From the IMG/VR virus record IMGVR_UViG_3300044825_002278, positions 1-64,000 of that record: a stretch of 64,000 bases of DNA; one strand, 5' to 3'. The notes under the pieces were generated by a model. The model saw nothing but the letters and a program-made list of their open reading frames with translations. It was not told the DNA's origin and searched no databases. Position 1 is the stretch's first letter, and each line of letters starts with the position of its first letter. Below, piece by piece: positions 5,322 to 55,932 of this stretch. The stretch is from a virus. The position numbers and the translations under genes were made by a program.

Positions 5322-5396
5322 GGGGGCGTAGCTCAGATGGATAGAGCATATGATTTCTAATCATAATGTCGGTGGGTTCGAGTCCTCCCGTCCCTA
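5322..5396 (+). tRNA. tRNA-Arg(TCT)
   Basis: GGGGGCG/CGTCCCT acceptor, TATGA-TTTCTAA-TCATA anticodon arm, GTTCGAGTC T-loop. Confidence 0.93.
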
Positions 5397-5765
5397 TTTT
5401 TCGATTAGACCTTGATGATGATGTTCGCGGTGACAATTAGAGCATAATAAATCACATTTATCTAATTCTTTTTTAACTTTATCTTTATTTTTTACCCATG
5501 ACGTATCACGATACTTTCCCATATGAAATTCTTTTTGACTCGGATCGCGGTGATGGAATTCTAAAGCTGATATACATTTATCATACCCACATTTTATACA
5601 TTTTCCACCTTTATATTCTAGACATTTAATTTTAAATTGTTGTTGGCGATATATTGCGTTACGACGATTACATTCTTTGCAATAACATTGTTTTTTACCA
5701 TTTTTTTGTGGTTTAAAAAATTCAACATGTGGATAACTAAGATGACACTTTGAACAAATTTGCAT
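5394..5765 (-). CDS. HNH homing endonuclease
   Basis: CxxC zinc finger, then CIKCGY..ALEFHH..CDLLCSNCHREHH; antisense to neighbours; stop codon overlaps the tRNA-Arg 3' end. Confidence 0.85.
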   Translation of the reverse strand: MQICSKCHLSYPHVEFFKPQKNGKKQCYCKECNRRNAIYRQQQFKIKCLEYKGGKCIKCGYDKCISALEFHHRDPSQKEFHMGKYRDTSWVKNKDKVKKELDKCDLLCSNCHREHHHQGLIEK

Positions 5766-5823
5766 AGCGACTCCTTAACTTAGAACTAGTTTAGCTAAGT
5801 TATTATACACAATTAAACAATAT

Positions 5824-6830: not shown

Positions 6831-7009
6831 GGGTAGGTAAAAACAATGACACTTGATGAATTGCTAGAAACCGTTCCAGTTGAAGTTAAAAATGCTATTG
6901 AAGAAATTTGCGAAAGGGCTGGAACATACGATGCGAATTGGGAAGTATTAAAAGCCGCTGGCGAATTATTGGTGAAATATAAAGGTGCTGCCGAAGGGGA
7001 AGATTGGGA

Positions 7010-7297
7010 ATGAGACAAATTGAACAAGAAATCAAACAATACAATGTACGCAAACCAATTGCTGAAGCGATACGTAGATTAAGCAAAATAGGTTTTAAAT
7101 TTAGTGGACACGGTAGTGGTTTTGGGCAAGAAGATTTTAATGTAATCAATTACGAACTTGATTTATATGTAAACTTTTGCGATACTGGACGAAAGTGCAT
7201 TGTTAACATAAGTCAGGTAACTGAAGATTTTCGCCTATTTTCTGGAACAATTAGTGAGGCAACTAAATTTATAGCCGCCAATGTTGCGGGTAGGTAA
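7010..7297 (+). CDS. Hypothetical protein
   Basis: ORF in co-oriented gene string. Confidence 0.5.
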   Translation: MRQIEQEIKQYNVRKPIAEAIRRLSKIGFKFSGHGSGFGQEDFNVINYELDLYVNFCDTGRKCIVNISQVTEDFRLFSGTISEATKFIAANVAGR

Positions 7298-7301
7298 AAC
7301 A

Positions 7302-7505
7302 ATGACATACAATGAGATAGAAGCCGCCACAAAGATTTGGGTTGAAACCGTATTGGAGTATTATAAGAACGCGCCCAATCGTGATGAATTGACACAAGTG
7401 TTTGCGCGGGGATATTTTTCTGGCTGGAGCGAGCGTGAACTTGCACAGCTTGCAGACCGTATGAAGTATAATAACGATAACTTTCCACCTTGGCCAATAG
7501 GATAA
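7302..7505 (+). CDS. Hypothetical protein
   Basis: ORF with AGG RBS. Confidence 0.45.
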   Translation: MTYNEIEAATKIWVETVLEYYKNAPNRDELTQVFARGYFSGWSERELAQLADRMKYNNDNFPPWPIG

Positions 7506-7508
7506 TTA

Positions 7509-7694
7509 ATGACAAAATATACAATAGAAGAAGCATATATTGATTATAACAATAAATATCTTGTTAAAATCCGTGTTGATCGTCAAAATTTTCAGGTTAT
7601 TCTTTTAATATTCGATCACTGGCCAAATGCAGAAGAAATCGACACAGAGTTTAAAAAAGAAGAATTAAAATTAAAGGAGTTTTTAAATGATTAA
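7509..7694 (+). CDS. Hypothetical protein
   Basis: ORF in gene string. Confidence 0.45.
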   Translation: MTKYTIEEAYIDYNNKYLVKIRVDRQNFQVILLIFDHWPNAEEIDTEFKKEELKLKEFLND

Positions 7695-7989
7695 GTATTT
7701 AGTGTGTGCGGCTTTTTGTTTGATGGCATCTTGTGTTAACGCTCAAGATTTGTATTACAACTACGGGGGCAATCCTTACTGCCCGCCAAATCCTTACGGT
7801 AATCTTTACCGTTATGATTACCAGCCGCGAGTGGTTGGGTATGCCCCTATTATTCAATGGATTCCACAAGGAACTTTTTTGAATGTTGGGCCGGTTGTGG
7901 TTGACAAGCAGCGGCGGCGTGTTATAATGGGTATCAATGCGGGGTTTTACAGTATCAATGGGGTTGACACTTACTACTTGGGGCGATAA
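7687..7989 (+). CDS. Secreted small protein with a planctomycete secretin-like beta-hairpin segment
   Basis: Signal peptide ending VNA-Q; VGYAPIIQWIPQGTFLNVGPVVVDKQRRRV resembles the VGYQPVITTLPEG..VSADRRYV motif recalled from planctomycete secretin-type proteins. Confidence 0.55.
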   Translation: MIKYLVCAAFCLMASCVNAQDLYYNYGGNPYCPPNPYGNLYRYDYQPRVVGYAPIIQWIPQGTFLNVGPVVVDKQRRRVIMGINAGFYSINGVDTYYLGR

Positions 7990-8174
7990 GAAATGACCGT
8001 AAAATGTTATAAAAATCAATTGCTTGTATGGCAAATGTCAATTAATGACTTTAGCTTGTGGGTAGCTACCAAGGGGCTTGAATATGTTTCCAAAGAACTT
8101 GCTGGCTGTCAAATAGAATTTTGTAAATCGGAAGTGTTGAACTAAAAGATATTGAGCTTTATTAAAGGTGTTAA

Positions 8175-8420
8175 ATGAGAATTGAATACGAATTGCCTCT
8201 TGGTTATTCACAAAAAGTAAACCACTGTAAAAGAATAGTGGAAGATTGGTTGCATTACAATCTTTGTAATGGGCATATAGAAGAAAAGATTGATAAGTTT
8301 GGCAAACTTTTAATCGTAATAACGGAAAAGTTTTTAAGCGAGCATCCCGATGAATTGCAAAACGTTGTTGATGCAATTGATTGTAACGGCTTTAATCATA
8401 AACTTACTGGTAAAGAATAA
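8175..8420 (+). CDS. Hypothetical protein
   Basis: AAGGTG RBS; stop overlaps next start. Confidence 0.5.
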   Translation: MRIEYELPLGYSQKVNHCKRIVEDWLHYNLCNGHIEEKIDKFGKLLIVITEKFLSEHPDELQNVVDAIDCNGFNHKLTGKE

Positions 8421-8698
8421 TGTACAAACTATACGGAATAAAAACAACTTACACGCCATCTTACGATGAACGCGAATGTCGCGAAGATGTTGAACGTAAG
8501 CTTGTTGCAACATTTGACACGGTTGAGCAAGTTGAAAAATATATCAAAAAGGCAAGATTAAAAACCCCTATACGTCAAACGTGGACAAACGATTATTATT
8601 TTAGAAGCAATTCAGTTTTAGCGAAATGCGGCGATTATGAAATAGAGTCGTACGATAATGAAGATTCAGTTCCACACAATCCAGAGATAAGCCGATGA
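8420..8698 (+). CDS. Hypothetical protein
   Basis: TAATG coupling. Confidence 0.55.
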   Translation: MYKLYGIKTTYTPSYDERECREDVERKLVATFDTVEQVEKYIKKARLKTPIRQTWTNDYYFRSNSVLAKCGDYEIESYDNEDSVPHNPEISR

Positions 8699-8961
8699 TA
8701 TTTAAAATTCGTGAAATTGTTGATATCGTAACAAATGATTTATGGCCAGATTTTACTGACGAAATTCGTTTAGAAAATCAAGACGTTTGCTTTAAAATAA
8801 CATTGCTTAAATATTGCCCATTTCCAAATGGCAATAGATTATGTATTACTGAATACATCGACAAGGAATCTTTAGATAAAATGTTTGAACTAGCTGTACC
8901 AGCTATGGCAAAGTCTATTATTGATAGGTGGAAAAGATCATTAGAGGAGCATAATAAATGA
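8695..8961 (+). CDS. Hypothetical protein
   Basis: ATGA coupling. Confidence 0.55.
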   Translation: MIFKIREIVDIVTNDLWPDFTDEIRLENQDVCFKITLLKYCPFPNGNRLCITEYIDKESLDKMFELAVPAMAKSIIDRWKRSLEEHNK

Positions 8962-8977
8962 CTTTTTTAACAGAAGC

Positions 8978-9018
8978 TAAAGATCCTCAGTTGACAAGCC
9001 GATATTGTACGGTAGAAT
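8978..9018 (+). promoter_or_regulatory. Dual sigma70/sigma28-like promoter
   Basis: TTGACA-16-TAGAAT and TAAA-16-GCCGATAT. Confidence 0.7.
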
Positions 9019-9087
9019 ATACTGGACAAGAGTGGGTGACATTGCGTTACACACCAAAAGACAAACATCGCGATAGGGCGAAAACCG

Positions 9088-9315
9088 ATGAAGCTTAGGA
9101 TTAAAAATAAAATCGTTGGCGAAGATGAGTTATTTTGGGTCGAACTTAATATAAATGGTGAGCGGATTTCAACCGACATTCACGCAAATTCTATAGAAGA
9201 AGCTGAAATTCTAGCCATTAAGCTTGAAAAACTTGCATACGAAATATATAGTGATGCATATTGGGCGGGCGGAAATAACGTATCGCAGCGTATAAAAGAA
9301 ATACTTGGAATTTAA
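9088..9315 (+). CDS. Hypothetical protein
   Basis: ORF downstream of promoter. Confidence 0.45.
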   Translation: MKLRIKNKIVGEDELFWVELNINGERISTDIHANSIEEAEILAIKLEKLAYEIYSDAYWAGGNNVSQRIKEILGI

Positions 9316-9316
9316 G

Positions 9317-9649
9317 ATGGATAAAATAAAAAAACAAGCATTAGAAGCTGCTGGTTGGAAATTTGGTGATGCAGAAGATTTTTTAAATGAAGGGCGAACA
9401 ATGAACATAGACGAAGCAATTGAGATTGCGACCTCAACGGCAATCACGCTAACCAAACTTGAGATGGCTGAGGTTGCGGAAGTGCTTGCCGCCGAAGTTG
9501 AGCGACTGCGAGCCATCACGATTTTTCGTAACGGGTTTCTGCGGTGTCACGATTTACTGGTGACGGTTTACGGGTGTCTGTCCAGTGGCCAGTTTGTGCC
9601 GAAGGAAACGATGGAGCTAATCAGGAAGGAAGTGGAGGGCGAACAATGA
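9317..9649 (+). CDS. Cassette-array protein 1 (coiled coil, Ead/Ea22-like) with an extra N-terminal peptide
   Basis: Internal MNIDEA at 9401 and LAAEVERLRA. Confidence 0.55.
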   Translation: MDKIKKQALEAAGWKFGDAEDFLNEGRTMNIDEAIEIATSTAITLTKLEMAEVAEVLAAEVERLRAITIFRNGFLRCHDLLVTVYGCLSSGQFVPKETMELIRKEVEGEQ

Positions 9650-22909: not shown

Positions 22910-23199
22910 GGGCTAGTAACGGTATCGATTTGATATGGAAGATTTAAATGCATCGCGTAGTTGGGATAGAGGCTACGTTAAAACTATTCCACAAATTTAA
23001 TTGGCAAGAATACTCTTGCTCTTGCTGCCTAATAAGTAGCTAGGGTTGTCAAACACCCTATTAACCAAAGTTTGACAGCGTAATATCGTTCTTGGACTGA
23101 CTTGCCTTGCTGTCAGGTAAAAAATGCAATGCGCTAACGATGTAGATTTTATTTTGGAAGTATTCAAAGACCCGAGTTCGACTCTCGGCTAGTCCACCA
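22910..23199 (+). ncRNA. ssrA: tmRNA, tag (A)GKNTLALAA
   Basis: GGGCTAG/CTAGTCC-ACCA acceptor with G3:U70, CCGAG-TTCGACT-CTCGG T-arm, internal frame GGC AAG AAT ACT CTT GCT CTT GCT GCC TAA. Confidence 0.93.
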
Positions 23200-24616: not shown

Positions 24617-24847
24617 TTGATAATGAAAAAGCCAGATAAAGCAAAACAAAATAGAAATTTAGAGCAGGGGAAAAAGAAACATCTAAAGCAAATTGCTAAA
24701 AATAAATCAAACAAGTTAAAGAAGCTACGAAGAATGGCCGATAATACACAAAAGCGACAGATGGAACAAGAAATGTTTAAGATGCAGCAAGAAATAAGAA
24801 AAATTCAAAACAAGGGCTTGACAATCAGGAATCCTGTTGTAGAATAA
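24617..24847 (+). CDS. Hypothetical basic protein
   Basis: GGAG RBS; Lys-rich. Confidence 0.5.
   Translation: MIMKKPDKAKQNRNLEQGKKKHLKQIAKNKSNKLKKLRRMADNTQKRQMEQEMFKMQQEIRKIQNKGLTIRNPVVE
24818..24845 (+). promoter_or_regulatory. Sigma70-type promoter
   Basis: TTGACA-16-TAGAAT. Confidence 0.55.
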
Positions 24848-29107: not shown

Positions 29108-30169
29108 TTGGACAACATTAAGTTATTTACTCCAATCAATAGTTTGGGATATGGGGTAGCTGGATACAATTTATTCAAAGAGTTATACAAACTTTATTCA
29201 TCCACTGCCCTTTATCCTATTTCTCAGCCAGAATTTATAGATGATTATGTTTTGGCTGGAATGAACAACAGAAGGTTTGTTTCGTACAAAAATTCTCCAT
29301 GCGTAAAAATATGGCATCAAAATGATGTACACTCTTTTGTTGGCAAAGGTTTGCATGTTGGTTTTCCTATATTTGAATTGACTGAATTTTCTCAAGAAGA
29401 ACGGTTGAGCATGTTTCATTGTGATCAACTGTTCGTTTGCTCGAACTGGGCAAAAGATATATTATACAACCAAAATGGTTGGAATTGTCCTCCTGTTCAC
29501 GTTGTGCCTCTTGGTGTTGATTCAGAGGTGTTTCAACCGTGTTTATCTTCTAGACAGCCAACAATATTCTTTAATTGTGGCAAATGGGAAAAACGTAAAG
29601 GTCATGATATTTTACTCGAATGCTTTAATTTTGCGTTTGAATCAACAGATAATGTCGAACTTTGGATGATGTGCGACAACCCATTTATAGGTAATAACAA
29701 TGAAAAATGGATGAATTTGTATAAAAATTCGCCGCTTGGACACAAGATCAGATTTATTCCAAGACAAAAAACGCATAAAGATGTGTATAATATCATGAAG
29801 CAAACAGATTGCGGTGTTTTTCCAGCCAGAGCAGAGGGTTGGAATCTGGAGTTATTAGAAATGATGTCTTGCGGTAAGGCTGTTATAGCCACAAATTATT
29901 CGGCTCATACAGAATTTTGCAATAAAGATAATTGTTATTTGATTGACCCAGATGGTCTAGAGTCGGCTTTTGATGGAGTATTTTTTTCGGGATCTCATGG
30001 ACAGTGGGCAAGTCTGCAAAAAAACTCAAAAGAACAAATTATAAATCATATGAGAACTGTACATGCTATAAAGCAAAATGGCTCATATTCAATAAACACA
30101 GAAGGCGTTAAAACCTCAATTAAATTTAGTTGGCGAAATTCAGCACAGGAGTTATTAAATGGACTCTAG
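29108..30169 (+). CDS. GT4-family glycosyltransferase
   Basis: VVPLGVD, GKWEKRKG, FPARAEGWNLELLEMMSCGKAVI. Confidence 0.85.
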   Translation: MDNIKLFTPINSLGYGVAGYNLFKELYKLYSSTALYPISQPEFIDDYVLAGMNNRRFVSYKNSPCVKIWHQNDVHSFVGKGLHVGFPIFELTEFSQEERLSMFHCDQLFVCSNWAKDILYNQNGWNCPPVHVVPLGVDSEVFQPCLSSRQPTIFFNCGKWEKRKGHDILLECFNFAFESTDNVELWMMCDNPFIGNNNEKWMNLYKNSPLGHKIRFIPRQKTHKDVYNIMKQTDCGVFPARAEGWNLELLEMMSCGKAVIATNYSAHTEFCNKDNCYLIDPDGLESAFDGVFFSGSHGQWASLQKNSKEQIINHMRTVHAIKQNGSYSINTEGVKTSIKFSWRNSAQELLNGL

Positions 30170-39152: not shown

Positions 39153-39763
39153 GAAAAGCCCTGCAAAGAACCGCGTCTATTTTATTTCTATCTCTTGTTT
39201 TCACTTTAATTTCTTCGAGTATTTATAGTCAAACGTGTTTTGTAAGGTGTGAACCAGATAAGGAAATCGGAGGCGGAGCTTGCGGATCTGGCTTTTTTAT
39301 TTCAAAAAATGAAATCCTAACTGCTGCCCATGTAATAAATGATGCAAACAATGTTAGGGTTGAATTTGATGGAAAGTATTTTATGGCTTCTGTTGTCAAA
39401 CAAGATGTGTCAAAAGACCTAGCGCTATTGAAAATAAATGAAGAATGTGATGTATTTTACAAACTCAGCGATGATTCTGGAAAAATTGAGCAAGAAGTAA
39501 CTTGTTATGGATTTCCGAGAGGCGTTTGGAGTATGTATAAATCAGAAGGAGTTATCAAGGAAATTAATAGCGTAAATAGGGACTCTACTGACAAGTCAAG
39601 ACTTGAGTATGCTGTTTTTATGAATGTAACAAACGGAATGTCTGGCGGTCCTCTTTTAACTAAAGATAAGGTTGTCATAGGCGTTCTAAGTAGTAAAAAT
39701 GTTATTGGCGAACAAAGAGCAAATTTTATTTCGCTTGAGGAAATAAGAAAGTTTCTTGACTAA
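39149..39763 (+). CDS. Secreted trypsin-like serine protease
   Basis: Signal peptide; GSGF..LTAAHV, DLALL, GMSGGP. Confidence 0.88.
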   Translation: MRKALQRTASILFLSLVFTLISSSIYSQTCFVRCEPDKEIGGGACGSGFFISKNEILTAAHVINDANNVRVEFDGKYFMASVVKQDVSKDLALLKINEECDVFYKLSDDSGKIEQEVTCYGFPRGVWSMYKSEGVIKEINSVNRDSTDKSRLEYAVFMNVTNGMSGGPLLTKDKVVIGVLSSKNVIGEQRANFISLEEIRKFLD

Positions 39764-39775
39764 AGTTAAAACAAA

Positions 39776-39893
39776 GCGAGAGCCAAGTGGTTGGTGGTAT
39801 TTAGGATAGGACATTGTTCACAAACTCTGCTTCCTATGTAGACGGTGATCAATGCTAAATATCGTAAAGCTGGTTCGAGTCCAGCCTCTCGCC
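39776..39893 (+). ncRNA. tRNA-like RNA with extended anticodon arm (CCT loop)
   Basis: GCGAGAG/CTCTCGC acceptor; GCTGG-TTCGAGT-CCAGC T-arm; three stacked helices in place of the anticodon arm. Confidence 0.8.
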
Positions 39894-39924
39894 CTTATTA
39901 AATTTGAATACAAAGGATAAGCAA

Positions 39925-39978
39925 ATGGAAAATAGTGTTGAACTTCTTGGTTATTATTTTTTAAAAAACAACATTTAA
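39925..39978 (+). pseudogene. Displaced 5' stub of a thyX allele
   Basis: AAAGGA RBS then MENSVELLGYY, paralleling MVELISYW at the start of intact thyX. Confidence 0.65.
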
Positions 39979-39988
39979 AGTCAAAATT

Positions 39989-40089
39989 TGTGTATAATAC
40001 TATGGATAAATTCGCGGTTATCCATATGTAAACAAAATAACTTTACCCCCCTTTTGTTTGATGCCGCGAACATCTCCAATTGTGGGGGT
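39989..40089 (+). promoter_or_regulatory. TGTGTATAAT motif plus double-pseudoknot leader of the GIY-YIG gene
   Basis: Four complementary segment pairs (detailed in findings). Confidence 0.6.
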
Positions 40090-40105
40090 TTTTTATTAAA
40101 ATATT

Positions 40106-40753
40106 ATGAAATCAGGAATATATCAAATAAAAATAAACAATAGTTTTTATATTGGGTCTTCTAAAAATATTCAAAGAAGATACTGGGAACATTTATGGAA
40201 ATTAAAAAATAAAAAACATCCAAATATCCATTTACAAAATTTGTATAATAAACATGGAGAAGAAAAATTTGAATTATTTATATTGGAAAGTTGCACAATA
40301 AATTGTTTAATAGAGAGAGAGCAATACTGGATTAATTTATTAAATCCAAATATAAACAAAGCACCAGTTGCTGGTTCAACATTAGGACTAAAATTAACAA
40401 ATGAACAATGCAAAAATAGAAGCAAAAATAATATTGGAAGAAAACATTCTCTTGAATCTATCAAAAAAAGAACAGATAAAATAAAAGGTAGAAAATATAC
40501 AGAAAAACACAGAGAAAATATATCTAAAAGCAGATTAGGTAAAAAACAAAATCAACAAACAATTAAAAATAGGGCAGAAAAAAATAAAAAACCTATTGCT
40601 TGTTATGATTTAAATTATATATTAATACGAATATACGATTCCGCTAAAACAGCGGCTTTAGAAAACAATTATCATGCAACAAACATAACAAGATGTTGTA
40701 AAAATAAAATTAAAACTTATAAAAACAAGATTTGGAGGTATTGGGATGGTTGA
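40106..40753 (+). CDS. GIY-YIG homing endonuclease with NUMOD3/NUMOD1-like DNA-binding repeats
   Basis: SGIYQI..FYIGSS, EREQYWI, GRKHSLES, KPI..YD..YDSAK.AA. Confidence 0.9.
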   Translation: MKSGIYQIKINNSFYIGSSKNIQRRYWEHLWKLKNKKHPNIHLQNLYNKHGEEKFELFILESCTINCLIEREQYWINLLNPNINKAPVAGSTLGLKLTNEQCKNRSKNNIGRKHSLESIKKRTDKIKGRKYTEKHRENISKSRLGKKQNQQTIKNRAEKNKKPIACYDLNYILIRIYDSAKTAALENNYHATNITRCCKNKIKTYKNKIWRYWDG

Positions 40754-41393
40754 ACTTATTTCATATTGGGGCAATGATTTAATGATCGTTAACGCCGCTA
40801 GAGTATCTTTTGGAAAATATAAAAATAAATTAGACGAGAAAGATAAAAAATTAATTAAATTTCTTAAAGAACATAAACACGTTAGTGTATTTCGTCATCC
40901 GCAATTACAATTTAGGATCACATGCCCAATTTTTGTAGAAAGACAATTGTTTAAACATCAAGTAGGGATGTCTGCTAATAGTATATCCGGTAGATATGTT
41001 GACTTTAGCGATTCTTATTTTAGTTTTAAAGATGGGGAGTGGCGGAAACAATCAGCGAATTCTAAACAAGGAAGCTCTGGTCCGGTTTTAAATAATCTTC
41101 AACATAAATGTACAAAAATACAAAATAGCGTAGTAGATATTTGTAAAAACGCATATAATGAATTATTATCTTTAGGCGTTTCAAAAGAACAAGCAAGAAC
41201 TATACTTCCGCTATGTTTAAATACAACTTTTATTTGGACAGGTTCTTTATTATCATTTTTACATCTTTGGGAATTAAGATTAAAAGAAGATGCTCAACAG
41301 GAAACCAGAGAAATCGCTGTTAAAATGCTAGAGTTGGTCAAGGGCATCGAAGGCAATCCGTTTAAACATACGCTTGAAGCGTGGGGATATTGA
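40746..41393 (+). CDS. thyX: Flavin-dependent thymidylate synthase
   Basis: NAARVSF, H.SVF.H, RQLFKHQ..NSISGRY, EQARTILP, LR....AQ.E.R. Confidence 0.92.
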   Translation: MVELISYWGNDLMIVNAARVSFGKYKNKLDEKDKKLIKFLKEHKHVSVFRHPQLQFRITCPIFVERQLFKHQVGMSANSISGRYVDFSDSYFSFKDGEWRKQSANSKQGSSGPVLNNLQHKCTKIQNSVVDICKNAYNELLSLGVSKEQARTILPLCLNTTFIWTGSLLSFLHLWELRLKEDAQQETREIAVKMLELVKGIEGNPFKHTLEAWGY

Positions 41394-41791
41394 TGAAACT
41401 AAGAACTGGCGCACAGATAAAGAATTTTAGGCACGAGTCTGTGGATCTGTATAAAATTTCAAGAGGGTGCGATATGTGCGGGTATAACAAGCATCCATCT
41501 AGTCTTTGCTTTGATCATTTGCCAGAATATGAAAAATCTCCAGTTACTAAAAATGGTAATAACAACACTTGGATTGGTGGAGGAATGTATAATTTGTACA
41601 AAAAACTCTATACCATAGATCAACTCATAGACGAAATTAAAAAATGCAGACTTTTGTGTCATAATTGTCATATGGAAACTACATACCCAAACAATAAACG
41701 GTATAAAGACCAAACCGAGGAAAGAATATTTACTGTGCAAGAACTTGAAAAAAGATTGCGCGATTTTGAAGAAAACTTATTGGAAATATAG
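41393..41791 (+). CDS. HNH endonuclease
   Basis: CDMCGY..LCFDH..KCRLLCHNCH; same family pattern as 5394-5765. Confidence 0.75.
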   Translation: MKLRTGAQIKNFRHESVDLYKISRGCDMCGYNKHPSSLCFDHLPEYEKSPVTKNGNNNTWIGGGMYNLYKKLYTIDQLIDEIKKCRLLCHNCHMETTYPNNKRYKDQTEERIFTVQELEKRLRDFEENLLEI

Positions 41792-53082: not shown

Positions 53083-53989
53083 AATTTTAGCTTTTGCTGG
53101 CTGCAAACAAGCTGGTAAATCTACTTGCTCAAACTTTTTGCATGGATATCAACTTCGCGCACAGGAAGTTATTCAAGATTTCGCCATTACTGAGCATGGA
53201 AAGCTTGTAGTAAAAACAGAAATTAGCGAAGATGGTAAAACTGAAATTGGCGAGACGTTTCTAGACACATCAAGAAAAGATCCTGATTTCGTAGAGTGGG
53301 CAATGTATAATATGTGGCCATTTGTAAAAAAGTATTCGTTTGCGGATACTTTAAAAGAAATTGGCATGACTCTTTTTGGTTTGACTTATGAGCAAGTTTA
53401 TGGTTCTGAAGCATATAAAAACCAACTCGTAGAACATCTACGGTGGGAAAATATGCCGGGTGTTATCACCCATAAAATGGTATCTTCTTTTATGGTTGGT
53501 ATAAATCCACCAATTAAAACTGCAAATGACTATATTGAATATGATAAAGATTTTACTGATGTATTTAAATTTATTATACATAAACCCGGACCAATGACTG
53601 TGCGCGAATTTCTACAGTATTTTGGAACCGAAGTATGTCGTAAAATATATGAACCAATATGGGTAAATAGAACCATCAAAGATATACAGCAAGAAGAACC
53701 TTTACTTGCGGTTATTGATGATTGTAGATTTGAAAATGAAATCAGGGCAGTTCAAGAAGCTGGCGGAAAAGTAATTGGACTAACTAGAAACGCCTCAAAA
53801 GATAAACATGACAGCGAACGAGTAATTGAAGATCATTCTGATATGATGGATGCAATTATTGATAATCAGAACATGGAAATTTTTGATGTTTGTAAATCAA
53901 TCATAACACAGCTAGATGAATGGGGATGGCTTGGAGCGCAAACGGTCACAAATAATGTAAAAGGACTTCACACCATAAAGGGTAAATAA
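53072..53989 (+). CDS. Deoxynucleoside monophosphate kinase
   Basis: GCKQAGKST, SFADTLK, REFLQYFGTE, IDDCRFENE, H.SE. Confidence 0.85.
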   Translation: MKTRILAFAGCKQAGKSTCSNFLHGYQLRAQEVIQDFAITEHGKLVVKTEISEDGKTEIGETFLDTSRKDPDFVEWAMYNMWPFVKKYSFADTLKEIGMTLFGLTYEQVYGSEAYKNQLVEHLRWENMPGVITHKMVSSFMVGINPPIKTANDYIEYDKDFTDVFKFIIHKPGPMTVREFLQYFGTEVCRKIYEPIWVNRTIKDIQQEEPLLAVIDDCRFENEIRAVQEAGGKVIGLTRNASKDKHDSERVIEDHSDMMDAIIDNQNMEIFDVCKSIITQLDEWGWLGAQTVTNNVKGLHTIKGK

Positions 53990-54012
53990 TGATAGTTACA
54001 TATACTAAATAA
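53989..54012 (+). pseudogene. Displaced 5' stub (MIVTY) of the Cas4-like nuclease gene
   Basis: TAATG-coupled MIVTYTK* parallels MLCTYVRSS at 54913. Confidence 0.5.
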
Positions 54013-54040: not shown

Positions 54041-54087
54041 TGTGTATTATACTGTGTAACAATTACATTTTTTGCGAGATACAGTAT
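54041..54087 (+). promoter_or_regulatory. TGTGTATT motif and start-codon-sequestering hairpin
   Basis: ATACTGTGT (54049-57) pairs with ATACAGTAT (54079-87). Confidence 0.55.
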
Positions 54088-54910
54088 GAAACCAAGTAAA
54101 AAACAATTACAAGATCAATTAAATCAGGGAAAAACACTGAAGCAAATAGCAGAATATTTCGGCAAGAAATCTGCGTCATCTATTAAAAACTGGTTATCTA
54201 ATTATAATCTTATTTCTAATAAGGTTTGTAAGCCTTGGACAGAGGAAGAAGATAGGTTTTTGGTAGAAAATTACCCAAAGTATGGATATGAATATTGTGG
54301 AAAAAAACTTGGTAGATCAAAAGATTCGATATATCAAAGATGTCAAAAAATTGATATTTGTAAAAATAGTAAATGGCAATCTTTAGATAGGGATTGGCTT
54401 ATAAAATGTTATGAGGAAGACAATTTGAGCATTAAAAATATAGCAAGTCAAATAGATGGTATAGAATTCTGGGATGTCTACGCGGCTCTAATACATTATG
54501 GAATAAAAATAAACAAATCTGGCAAATACTATGGAAAAGATCATCATAATTGGTCTGGATATCAAGAAATTTCAAATACTCATTGGTTGTCAATAAAACA
54601 ATCTGCAAAAAAGGGAAGGTCTAGAGAGATAGATTTTGATATAACTATAGAGGAAGCATGGGAATTATTTATAGGGCAAAATCGTCAATGCGCTTTATCT
54701 GGAGTAGAAATTAAATTTTCTCCAACCGGAAGTAATAGGTATCAAAAAACTACAGCATCGTTAGATAGAATAGATTCTTCAAAAGGATATTTTTTAAATA
54801 ATTGCCAATGGGTTCATAAAAATATCAACATGATGAAACAATCTTTATCCGATAAAGAGTTCATAGATTGGTGTTCTAAAGTTTGTAATTACAATCAAGG
54901 TAAAAAATAA
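54086..54910 (+). CDS. His-Me finger/HNH-type homing endonuclease with N-terminal HTH/Myb-like repeats
   Basis: WTEEED..L..NY; Q...CALSG..ASLDRIDSSKGY..NCQWV...NMMK. Confidence 0.8.
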   Translation: MKPSKKQLQDQLNQGKTLKQIAEYFGKKSASSIKNWLSNYNLISNKVCKPWTEEEDRFLVENYPKYGYEYCGKKLGRSKDSIYQRCQKIDICKNSKWQSLDRDWLIKCYEEDNLSIKNIASQIDGIEFWDVYAALIHYGIKINKSGKYYGKDHHNWSGYQEISNTHWLSIKQSAKKGRSREIDFDITIEEAWELFIGQNRQCALSGVEIKFSPTGSNRYQKTTASLDRIDSSKGYFLNNCQWVHKNINMMKQSLSDKEFIDWCSKVCNYNQGKK

Positions 54911-54912
54911 TT

Positions 54913-55932
54913 ATGTTATGCACCTACGTTCGCTCATCAAGCTATAATAACTATGACTATTGCGAGATGCAGTACTTCATTACTTATGTACTTGGACATA
55001 CGTCAAGTTCTAATAAAAAAGCCCAACTAGGAACAATTGTCCATAAAGTAATGGAGTGTTTAGCGTCTTGCAAAAAACAACTTCAAGATAATCCAAATGA
55101 AAAAAGTTTGTTTGTAAATGATGATGCCTTGGGTAAAATAAATTTTACTCCAAAAACTCTATTTACAAAAGGTTTTGTATTTAAGCTTTTAGATCAAAGT
55201 TATGAATATTATACATCGAATTGCACCCATAATTACATACCGGCAGATAAAAAGTTTTGTCGTGAATTAACTGATAGCGCTTTGAATTATAATGACGGAC
55301 AATTTGACCCTAGAAATAGAAAAATCATAGATGCCGAACCGCGTTTTGATATACCAATAAACAAAGACTGGGCTAAATTTAAATATATGATTGGCGGTCA
55401 AGAAGTTGAGGGTCAATTAGCAATAAAGGGAACAATCGATCTTGTTACCGAAATTGAAGATGGCATTATAGAAGTTATAGATTGGAAAACTGGACAAAGA
55501 AAAAATTGGGCTACCGGAGAAGAAAAAACTTACGAAAAACTAATTGACGATCCTCAGCTTTTATTGTATAATTACGCTATCTCTCAACTTTATCCAAACT
55601 ACGAACAAGCGATAATGTCGATATTCTTTATACGAGATGGCGGTCCATTTAGCTTGTGTTTCGATAAATCAGACCAAGAAAGATTCTTGGAAATGTTAGA
55701 AAAAAGATTTACAGAAATAAAAAATAATACAAAACCAAAACCATGTTCAGCAAATAGAACAAATTTCAAATGTACCAAGCTATGCGACTTTTACAAAAAG
55801 ACTTGGCCGGGAACAAATGTTTCAATGTGTGAACATGTTGAAGAACATTTAAAAACTTTTGGTCATGATGCAACAGTGGAGAAATGTACAAAAGATGGAC
55901 ACAATATCGGATATTACCAAGCGCCGGGATAA
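54913..55932 (+). CDS. Cas4/AddB-like PD-(D/E)XK exonuclease
   Basis: N-terminal Cys, GTIVH, E..F, KGTIDL..IDWKTG, QL.LY, C-terminal Cys cluster. Confidence 0.82.
   Translation: MLCTYVRSSSYNNYDYCEMQYFITYVLGHTSSSNKKAQLGTIVHKVMECLASCKKQLQDNPNEKSLFVNDDALGKINFTPKTLFTKGFVFKLLDQSYEYYTSNCTHNYIPADKKFCRELTDSALNYNDGQFDPRNRKIIDAEPRFDIPINKDWAKFKYMIGGQEVEGQLAIKGTIDLVTEIEDGIIEVIDWKTGQRKNWATGEEKTYEKLIDDPQLLLYNYAISQLYPNYEQAIMSIFFIRDGGPFSLCFDKSDQERFLEMLEKRFTEIKNNTKPKPCSANRTNFKCTKLCDFYKKTWPGTNVSMCEHVEEHLKTFGHDATVEKCTKDGHNIGYYQAPG

Follow-up and report, generated by a model that had tools for sequence, protein, structure and literature searches.

Organization of the thyX locus

The stretch of viral DNA analyzed here, hereafter the window, comprises the first 64 kb of a 104-kb record of the IMG/VR database (IMGVR_UViG_3300044825_002278) and carries, at its thyX locus, a gene for a free-standing homing endonuclease of the GIY-YIG family. 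Along the locus, a ribosome-binding site (RBS) and a 17-codon open reading frame (ORF) resembling the beginning of a thyX gene, here termed the stub, are followed by a leader, the nuclease gene, and a complete thyX with an RBS and a start codon of its own (Table 1). An initial annotation, made from the letters of the window, had described an RBS with a stub reading MENSVELLGYY.., a structured leader, and a GIY-YIG ORF overlapping an intact thyX, all of which we located where it had placed them, and had pointed to a sequence common to the stub and the thyX start, which is present in both copies (GTTGAACTT). We consider that the locus records the arrival of a start-replacing endonuclease cassette, in which the nuclease entered thyX without an intron, bringing a foreign thyX and leaving a 5' stub of the resident gene, and we give this reading a probability of about 85%.

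The nuclease, 215 amino acids (aa) in length, matches the Pfam GIY-YIG profile (PF01541) above the cut-off at 4e-9 and, over its full length, PHROG 314 (“homing endonuclease”) at 9e-32. Its residues 135–214 match phrog_20162, and no Pfam DNA-binding domain was called. The catalytic domain is similar to that of I-TevI (1LN0/1MK0; 1e-15), with the first 9 residues, MKSGIYQIK, being identical and the GIY, YIG, Arg (RRYWEH), and Glu (IEREQYW) positions all kept; judged from this alignment, the catalytic domain looks intact. The gene is the sole GIY-YIG gene in the 104-kb record. Its stop codon (40751–40753) falls inside thyX, the ATG of which lies at 40746, so that the 2 genes overlap by 8 nucleotides (nt), and the Shine–Dalgarno sequence of thyX is embedded in the last codons of the nuclease gene, an arrangement implying that nuclease and thyX travel, and would be expressed, as one unit. 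The thyX gene itself is a single ORF that covers positions 1–187 of the 191 positions of the Thy1 profile, and solved ThyX structures match its product at up to 2.6e-32.

Table 1. Features of the thyX locus and of related sites in the window. GC, guanine plus cytosine content.
Feature	Position	Strand	Remarks
HNH endonuclease gene	5394..5765	-	preceded by a TGYGTATWAT copy
tmRNA gene	22910..23199		transfer-messenger RNA
tRNA-shaped element	39776..39892		directly 5' of the resident thyX RBS
Resident thyX RBS, AAGGA	39913..39917	+	7 nt 5' of the stub ATG; homologous position in L110 and L111
Stub ORF, MENSVELLGYYFLKNNI and stop, 17 codons	39925..39978	+	read from sequence
Putative displaced first 11 codons of resident thyX	39925..39957	+	last 6 stub codons and stop are junction sequence
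Junction filler	39958..39984	+	common neither to relatives nor to L093
Cassette leader	39985..40105	+	promoter-like TGTGTATAAT (39989–39998); hairpin (~39998–40030); terminator-like hairpin and T-run (~40036–40097)
GIY-YIG homing endonuclease gene, free-standing, I-TevI-like	40106..40753	+	215 aa; GC 0.24
Shine–Dalgarno GGAGG for new thyX start	40734..40738	+	inside 3' end of nuclease ORF
Complete thyX, starts MVELISYWGND	40746..41393	+	215 aa; Pfam Thy1 (PF02511), 1e-43
Donor-type part of thyX, codons 1 to ~182	40746..41290	+	GC 0.30; 88–97% nt identity to L093
3' end of thyX, mosaic or resident-like	41291..41393	+	GC 0.45; right-hand recombination end inside
HNH endonuclease gene	41393..41791	+	start overlaps thyX stop (TGATG); PHROG HNH families, 9e-14 and 1e-13
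Second stub, MIVTYTK and stop, putative displaced exonuclease start	53989..54012	+	coupled to kinase-like gene via TAATG
ORF of 274 aa, labeled HNH-type in the initial annotation	54086..54910	+	absent from relative at this site; TGTGTATTAT upstream (54041–54050)
Exonuclease gene, starts MLCTYVRSSSYNNYDY	54913..55932	+	begins 2 nt after the 274-aa ORF
TGYGTATWAT copies	5802–5811 (-), 24741–24750 (-), 29782–29791 (+), 39989–39998 (+), 54041–54050 (+)	+/-	

The stub aligns with the beginning of thyX in nuclease-free relatives

A search with the neighboring protease gene yielded 4 contigs (L108–L111), including one complete 148-kb genome with terminal repeats, that are related to the window. Their amino acid identity to the window is 91–96% for nrdA and nrdB, 77–79% for the protease, and 76% for a phosphoesterase, and the genes that follow are in the same order. 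The GIY-YIG nuclease is absent from all 4. The initial annotation had predicted that in such relatives thyX would begin directly behind the resident RBS, and this is where it begins, with MQNKVELMSPDGYYGSDE in L110, behind the same tRNA-shaped element, and with MKNKVELMTPHGYYGSDE in L111. At the DNA level, the window matches the relatives from the upstream region through ATG..AAT..GTTGAACTT..GGxTATTAT, and all similarity is lost right after TATTAT, that is, at the last thyX-like codon of the stub (GYY codons). The similarity of the stub to thyX thus holds at the nucleotide level; similarity between the thyX of the window and that of the relatives resumes only in the last ~100 nt of the gene.

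The resemblance was also assessed with a position matrix of thyX N-termini, built from 119 N-termini among the best 120 of 4,342 thyX homologues. When all six frames of the window were scored, VELLGYY of the stub ranked second among ~128,000 seven-residue windows, the sole higher score being that of the real thyX start. Among these best 120 homologues, N-termini either begin directly with MVEL... or carry a few extra residues, as in MENTVELISHWG, MENKVELLSHFG, and MTVELLSYYGND, and the stub resembles forms such as MENTVELISHWG and MTVELLSYYGND. An exact degenerate DNA pattern for MENSVELLGYYG had no match in IMG/VR.

Most of the present thyX is foreign

The product of the window thyX is 92% identical to that of L093, a contig from a metagenome scan with an otherwise unrelated genome, and only 33–34% identical to the ThyX of the window's own relatives. 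Because the resident type in the relatives is so distant, ~85% of the gene (~545 nt) can be assigned a foreign origin. In 41200–41290, L093 can be told from the resident type at 46 sites, and the window agrees with L093 at 42 of them, whereas at such sites in 41292–41396 donor-like and resident-like states are mixed. The segment 41291–41393 is 73–77% identical at the nucleotide level to L110 and L111, which is the level of the flanking genes, and ~80% identical to L093. The base composition follows the same division: GC is 0.30 in the foreign part, compared with 0.37 in the resident thyX of the relatives and 0.36 in the AT-rich window as a whole, and the step at ~41290 fits a chimeric gene. 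The earlier impression, gained by eye, that thyX is AT-rich like the nuclease and becomes less so toward its 3' end is borne out by these values, with the nuclease gene lowest of all. Taken together, the alignments show that a foreign AT-rich thyX took the place of a divergent resident subtype between codon 12 and approximately codon 190; on the sequence comparison, the present thyX is a chimera. In these phages, thyX does not track the phage's own ancestry.

ThyX proteins carry the signature motif RHR(x)7S. In an alignment with 6J61, FKHQVGMSANSISGRY of the window protein stands opposite FRHRTA-SVNEISGRY, with the Ser-Gly-Arg-Tyr part kept, and the family to which the window protein belongs reads F-K-H-Q...S-G-R-Y (residues 69–84), compared with F-R-H-R...S-G-R-Y in solved ThyX enzymes. 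K70, H71, and Q72 are invariant among 25 homologues; the resident type of the relatives has K-H-R. The middle part of the resident thyX in the relatives (L110, 4749–5432; L111, 4673–5377) is only ~33% identical to the common family type, and the first ~8 and last ~45 residues are near it, so that, as far as the sequences tell, the resident gene of L110 and L111 may itself be a mosaic from earlier exchanges.

The nuclease–thyX unit recurs in unrelated genomes with different stubs

The nuclease is 95% identical at the amino acid level in L093 and L094, 2 contigs from the same scan of which all other genes are unrelated to the window; the thyX of L094 is 81% identical to that of the window. Nucleotide identity of the nuclease gene among the 3 carriers is 90–100%, drops to random level outside the unit, and is 93–100% across the GGAGG stretch that serves as the new thyX Shine–Dalgarno sequence. 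The stubs of the 3 carriers differ: MENSVELLGYY in the window, MPAGPNTVELIGY and a stop in L093, and MKNIVKLL... in L094. The junctions lie 7, 6, and 4 residues after the Val, respectively. The left end of the common DNA also varies, since the window and L093 share sequence from ~39985 on, with different filler before it, and L094 shares only the last ~25 nt of the leader. Different stubs, different junctions, and different amounts of retained leader in carriers of nearly the same nuclease argue for repeated entries with an imprecise left join, and the variable left junction looks like the result of illegitimate joining and not of insertion at a fixed site.

On a broader scale, a GIY-YIG gene lies directly upstream of thyX in 11 of the 80 IMG/VR loci with this thyX type, to which the metagenome contigs L093–L095 add 3, and in these loci the nuclease stop overlaps or abuts the thyX start. 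The nucleases include a clade of 215 aa (window, L093, L094, and L017) and one of ~260 aa (L023, L028, L032, L089, and L095), which are ~30% identical to each other, both being situated directly before thyX. Stubs are found in both clades. That of L017, of which the nuclease is 57% identical, reads MNNNNVELLGHYGND followed by SIIDI and a stop that overlaps the nuclease ATG; that of L089 reads MINEKNDNKVQLIGYY followed by LSYR and a stop; L032 and L034 have MNKIELF..., L036 has MGNKVELF and a stop, and L028 has a frameshifted MNKV.LLNYY. In the L023 group and in L095, there is no stub and the nuclease gene directly follows the upstream gene. Overall, a thyX-like peptide with an ATG start is encoded no more than 200 nt before the nuclease gene in 7 of 10 lineages, compared with 1.6% of 3,093 control windows (binomial P ~1e-11).

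L017 carries 2 further GIY-YIG genes, at 7493–8332 and from 9212 onward, within 6836–9511; they seem to interrupt a DNA polymerase gene (6836–7282 and 8370–8969), a possible genes-in-pieces case.

Weighing the explanations

Some features of the locus call to mind a self-splicing intron of group I, or some other spliced element, that would contain the nuclease ORF and have the stub as its exon 1: I-TevI of phage T4, the closest solved relative of the nuclease, is encoded by an intron in a thymidylate synthase gene, the leader is structured, and the stub ends in T, with a run of G before GGC AAT GAT in thyX, such that GYY could be joined in frame to GND. However, Rfam searches of 39700–41500 for a known RNA element, at gathering scores and with E up to 10, returned noise only; only ~16 nt separate the nuclease stop from the putative 3' splice site; thyX possesses a Shine–Dalgarno sequence and an ATG of its own, and its full, family-type N-terminus is the same as in homologues without a nuclease; and the VEL..Y. 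segment is duplicated, not interrupted. Moreover, the junctions in L017 are overlaps, of the stub stop with the ATG of the nuclease gene and of the stop of that gene with the ATG of thyX, so that there is no spacer before or after the nuclease gene, and the leader is missing from L094. An intron thus appears to be excluded as far as computation allows, and we find it hardly credible, which is in line with the earlier proposal that lethality is avoided here without splicing. An intein was also considered and rejected, as stub, nuclease, and thyX are separate ORFs with their own starts and stops and the nuclease and thyX frames differ, as was a genes-in-pieces or MobA-type split, thyX being a single 215-aa ORF with a whole Thy1 domain. 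Only slightly less remote is that we are dealing with a free-standing endonuclease gene of the ordinary intergenic kind and with a stub that is a chance ORF unrelated to thyX. The region is AT-rich, short ORFs are common in it, and the loci of the L023 group and L095 have no stub, all of which would suit a chance origin, but the stub is the second-best thyX N-terminus of the whole window, it aligns at the nucleotide level to the relatives' thyX start behind homologous upstream DNA, the same nuclease is accompanied by different thyX-like stubs in L093 and L094, and the frequency of stubs across lineages far exceeds the background given above.

A weightier alternative, although still an improbable one, is a single old origin of the arrangement, which was then moved by ordinary homologous recombination through the stub, the stub differences being later divergence and deletions. 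The window, L089, and L028 share a junction directly after TATTAT, the sequences that follow it are similar in the window and L028 (TTTTTAAAAA and TTTAAAAATTA), and a stub, once present, offers left-hand homology for further homing. Against this stand the 3 different junctions of a 95%-identical nuclease, the retention of at least 120 nt of donor leader in the window and L093 but ~25 nt in L094, the occurrence of each stub in a different genome, and the match between the stub of the window and the thyX start of its own relatives.

Entry of a start-replacing cassette, the explanation we favor, has to be set against several observations that weaken it. The stub lacks 3 codons (SPD/TPH) that the relatives possess, though it is otherwise alike, and the thyX of the immediate ancestor may therefore have differed from those of the sampled relatives. 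The right-hand junction can be placed only within 41290–41396. Identity of thyX falls from 93–97% in the first 60 nt to 70–82% at the 3' end, a gradient that agrees with co-conversion but lacks significance: of 92 control pairs of thyX genes without a nuclease, 12% to 28% are at least as steep, and we do not rely on it. The stub pattern behind the count of 7 in 10 lineages was defined after the cases had been seen, and L032 and L036 are related. Finally, 3 lineages (the L023 group, L095, and the frameshifted L028) have no clean stub, from which it follows that the stub is a scar and not an obligatory part of the unit. As for the initial annotation, its proposal that an element was inserted within the first codons of thyX and supplied a replacement start agrees with the alignment to the relatives, but the replacement, which it took to be a new 5' end, extends over most of the gene.

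The leader and its promoter-like motif

For the 120-nt leader, the folding energy is -27.8 kcal/mol (z = -2.66), a value matched by none of 200 shuffled sequences, and a terminator scan found the terminator-like hairpin, followed by a T-run, 3' of the first hairpin. No Shine–Dalgarno sequence precedes the nuclease ATG at 40106. The leader is 91–96% identical to that of L093. Covariation does not support its pairing, because the one double change noticed in a comparison of the window with L093, C-G to U-U, fails to keep the pair.

The promoter-like sequence belongs to a motif, TGYGTATWAT, that is present in 5 copies in the window, compared with 0.8 expected, a number reached in none of 100 shuffles. 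Three of the 5 copies lie 35–110 nt upstream of nuclease genes, namely, the HNH gene at 5394–5765, the GIY-YIG gene, and the ORF at 54086–54910. Of these 3, the one at the GIY-YIG gene lies within the mobile leader, and it is conserved in L093.

A second locus with the same layout

The initial annotation had noted that 2 unrelated nucleases of the window share one layout, and comparison with a complete relative (G001; 148 kb) upholds this. In the relative, the exonuclease gene starts with MIVTYIRSSSYNNYDY at exactly the TAATG to which the second stub of the window is coupled, and no nuclease is present there; in the window, the second stub, the 274-aa ORF, and a new exonuclease start follow one another (Table 1). 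We see an even chance that start-replacing cassettes are a general third way, besides introns or inteins and gene splitting, for endonucleases to live in phage genes. In this reading, the overlap of stop and start would link the nuclease ORF to a foreign copy of the 5' part of the target gene, with the RBS encoded by the last nuclease codons.

Proposed mechanism

The home of the nuclease would be the slot immediately upstream of thyX, as it is found in L023 and L095. During a mixed infection, the enzyme would cut a nuclease-free thyX near codon 11–12; a cut in this position is suggested by the junction directly after TATTAT in 3 lineages. The right-hand end would be repaired by copying the donor thyX together with the nuclease gene. 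As the upstream flanks differ between phage lineages, the left end would be without a homologous partner and would be joined illegitimately, and the RBS and first codons of the recipient would stay behind as a short dead ORF, the stub. The resulting chimeric gene needs no intron, intein, or protein reassembly.

The Shine–Dalgarno sequence within the nuclease gene, together with the overlap of stop and start codons, would secure expression of thyX, whereas the leader, with its promoter-like motif and terminator-like hairpin and without a Shine–Dalgarno sequence, probably keeps expression of the nuclease low. In L017 and L032, coupling of the nuclease ATG to the stub stop would set a low level instead. 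Comparable expression controls have been described for endonuclease genes of T4 and Aeh1 (PMC2988022). The sequences show the anatomy of the locus, the lack of the nuclease in relatives, its occurrence with differing stubs and junctions in unrelated genomes, and the foreign origin of most of thyX; from them we infer the cut site, the repair pathway, the way in which expression is controlled, and that the new allele is immune to cleavage, and the terms “essential” for thyX and “cleavage-resistant” for its new 5' end, both used in the initial annotation, are likewise to be read as presumptive. Given that the new 5' end keeps the thyX sequence from codon 2 on, any immunity could arise only through base changes or through the change in the left flank.

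The locus is an example of a free-standing homing endonuclease lodged in the coding start of a useful gene in the absence of splicing machinery. If start-replacing cassettes are indeed a general way of life, such a unit could jump between unrelated phage lineages with one-sided homology and overwrite a divergent gene, here one that is 33% identical, and the stubs would record cut sites. One-sided homology seems to be enough for entry into unrelated phages, whereby whole foreign metabolic genes would be carried across lineages. In annotation work, short “orphan” ORFs similar to the beginning of the gene after next may be scars of such events and would point to the likely cut sites of uncharacterized GIY-YIG and HNH enzymes.

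Genomic surroundings

Upstream of the locus, the gene order is nrdA, nrdB, a gene for a trypsin-like protease, the tRNA-shaped element, and then AAGGA. A search of INPHARED phages identified no close relative, but short thyX and nuclease matches only. The window contains 6 transfer RNA (tRNA) genes and one transfer-messenger RNA (tmRNA) gene. A tmRNA is encoded by both the window phage and the unrelated contig L093 (2084–2443 in the latter), with the tag peptides GKNTLALAA and DASYELALAA, respectively, and both genomes also have several tRNAs.

In the tRNA-shaped element, the acceptor stem is perfect over its 7 bp and the T-arm is canonical; ARAGORN made no call for the element, and its best Rfam match was weak (tRNA-Sec, 17.7 bits, E = 3). 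In L110, the element is 32 nt shorter and likewise without a tRNA call, the extra 32 nt of the window corresponding to the anticodon-arm region, and L111 has no such element. When the 3' half of the element served as a probe, the matches were tRNA arrays of unrelated jumbo phages only.

The thyX gene is bracketed by 2 different endonuclease genes, GIY-YIG upstream and HNH downstream. The downstream gene is a separate element in a variable slot, which is filled by unrelated ORFs in the relatives (104 aa in L111 and 149 aa in L110), and it is absent from L093 and L094. The Pfam HNH model had no match in the whole record, and the assignment of this gene to HNH rests on PHROGs.

Comparison with known systems

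In the open-access literature searched, we found no phage paper describing a 5' stub together with a replacement start. The free-standing GIY-YIG (Seg) and HNH (Mob) endonucleases of T4-like phages spread by intronless homing with co-conversion of flanking DNA (PMC2988022; SegB, PMC2330249; MobE, PMC2790892). The window element resembles them in its I-TevI-like catalytic domain, in being a stand-alone ORF beside a conserved gene of nucleotide metabolism, in its presence or absence among related phages, and in the neighboring gene sequence that is dragged along; mobE, segF, and others likewise have stop codons overlapping start codons, terminators, and weak signals for translation. The seg and mob genes of T4 are described as intergenic or as splitting a gene into 2 polypeptides, as in Aeh1 nrdA and T4 39/60 (PMC2988022). 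Unlike them, the window element lies inside the first codons of its target, with a dead 5' stub on one side and, on the other, one full-length gene with its own RBS and start. I-TevI of the T4 td group I intron provides the closest solved catalytic domain and likewise targets a thymidylate synthase gene, but the window nuclease is without an intron, its target thyX is unrelated to thyA/td, and its 215 aa include a different C-terminal part.

The closest precedents are found in fungal mitochondria and in the MobA element of T4. Fungal mitochondrial mORFs make “gene hybrids,” as in atp6 of Allomyces macrogynus and in atp6, atp9, cox2, and nad3 of Glomus (PMC3630166, with reference to Paquin et al. 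1994). In these, too, an endonuclease ORF is combined with a foreign copy of a gene end, the native end is left as an unused duplicate, no splicing is involved, and the piece brought in shows greater divergence than what remains of the native end. The phage arrangement is nevertheless a mirror image: mORFs exchange the 3' (C-terminal) end and are commonly in frame with the gene they enter, whereas the phage element replaces the 5' end, with RBS and start codon, and remains a separate cistron; hosts and nuclease families are also different, those of mitochondria being mostly LAGLIDADG. In the MobA element, mobA is combined with the bypass cassette of gene 60 (Bonocora et al. 2011, cited and extended in bioRxiv 10.1101/2022.08.31.505936). 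According to that account, the nuclease moves with a stretch that substitutes target-gene sequence, as in the window, and this stretch, the “homR” region, protects the invaded allele; MobA, however, splits the topoisomerase gene into 2 tailed proteins and needs a 50-nt ribosomal bypass, whereas the window element entails neither a split protein nor recoding.

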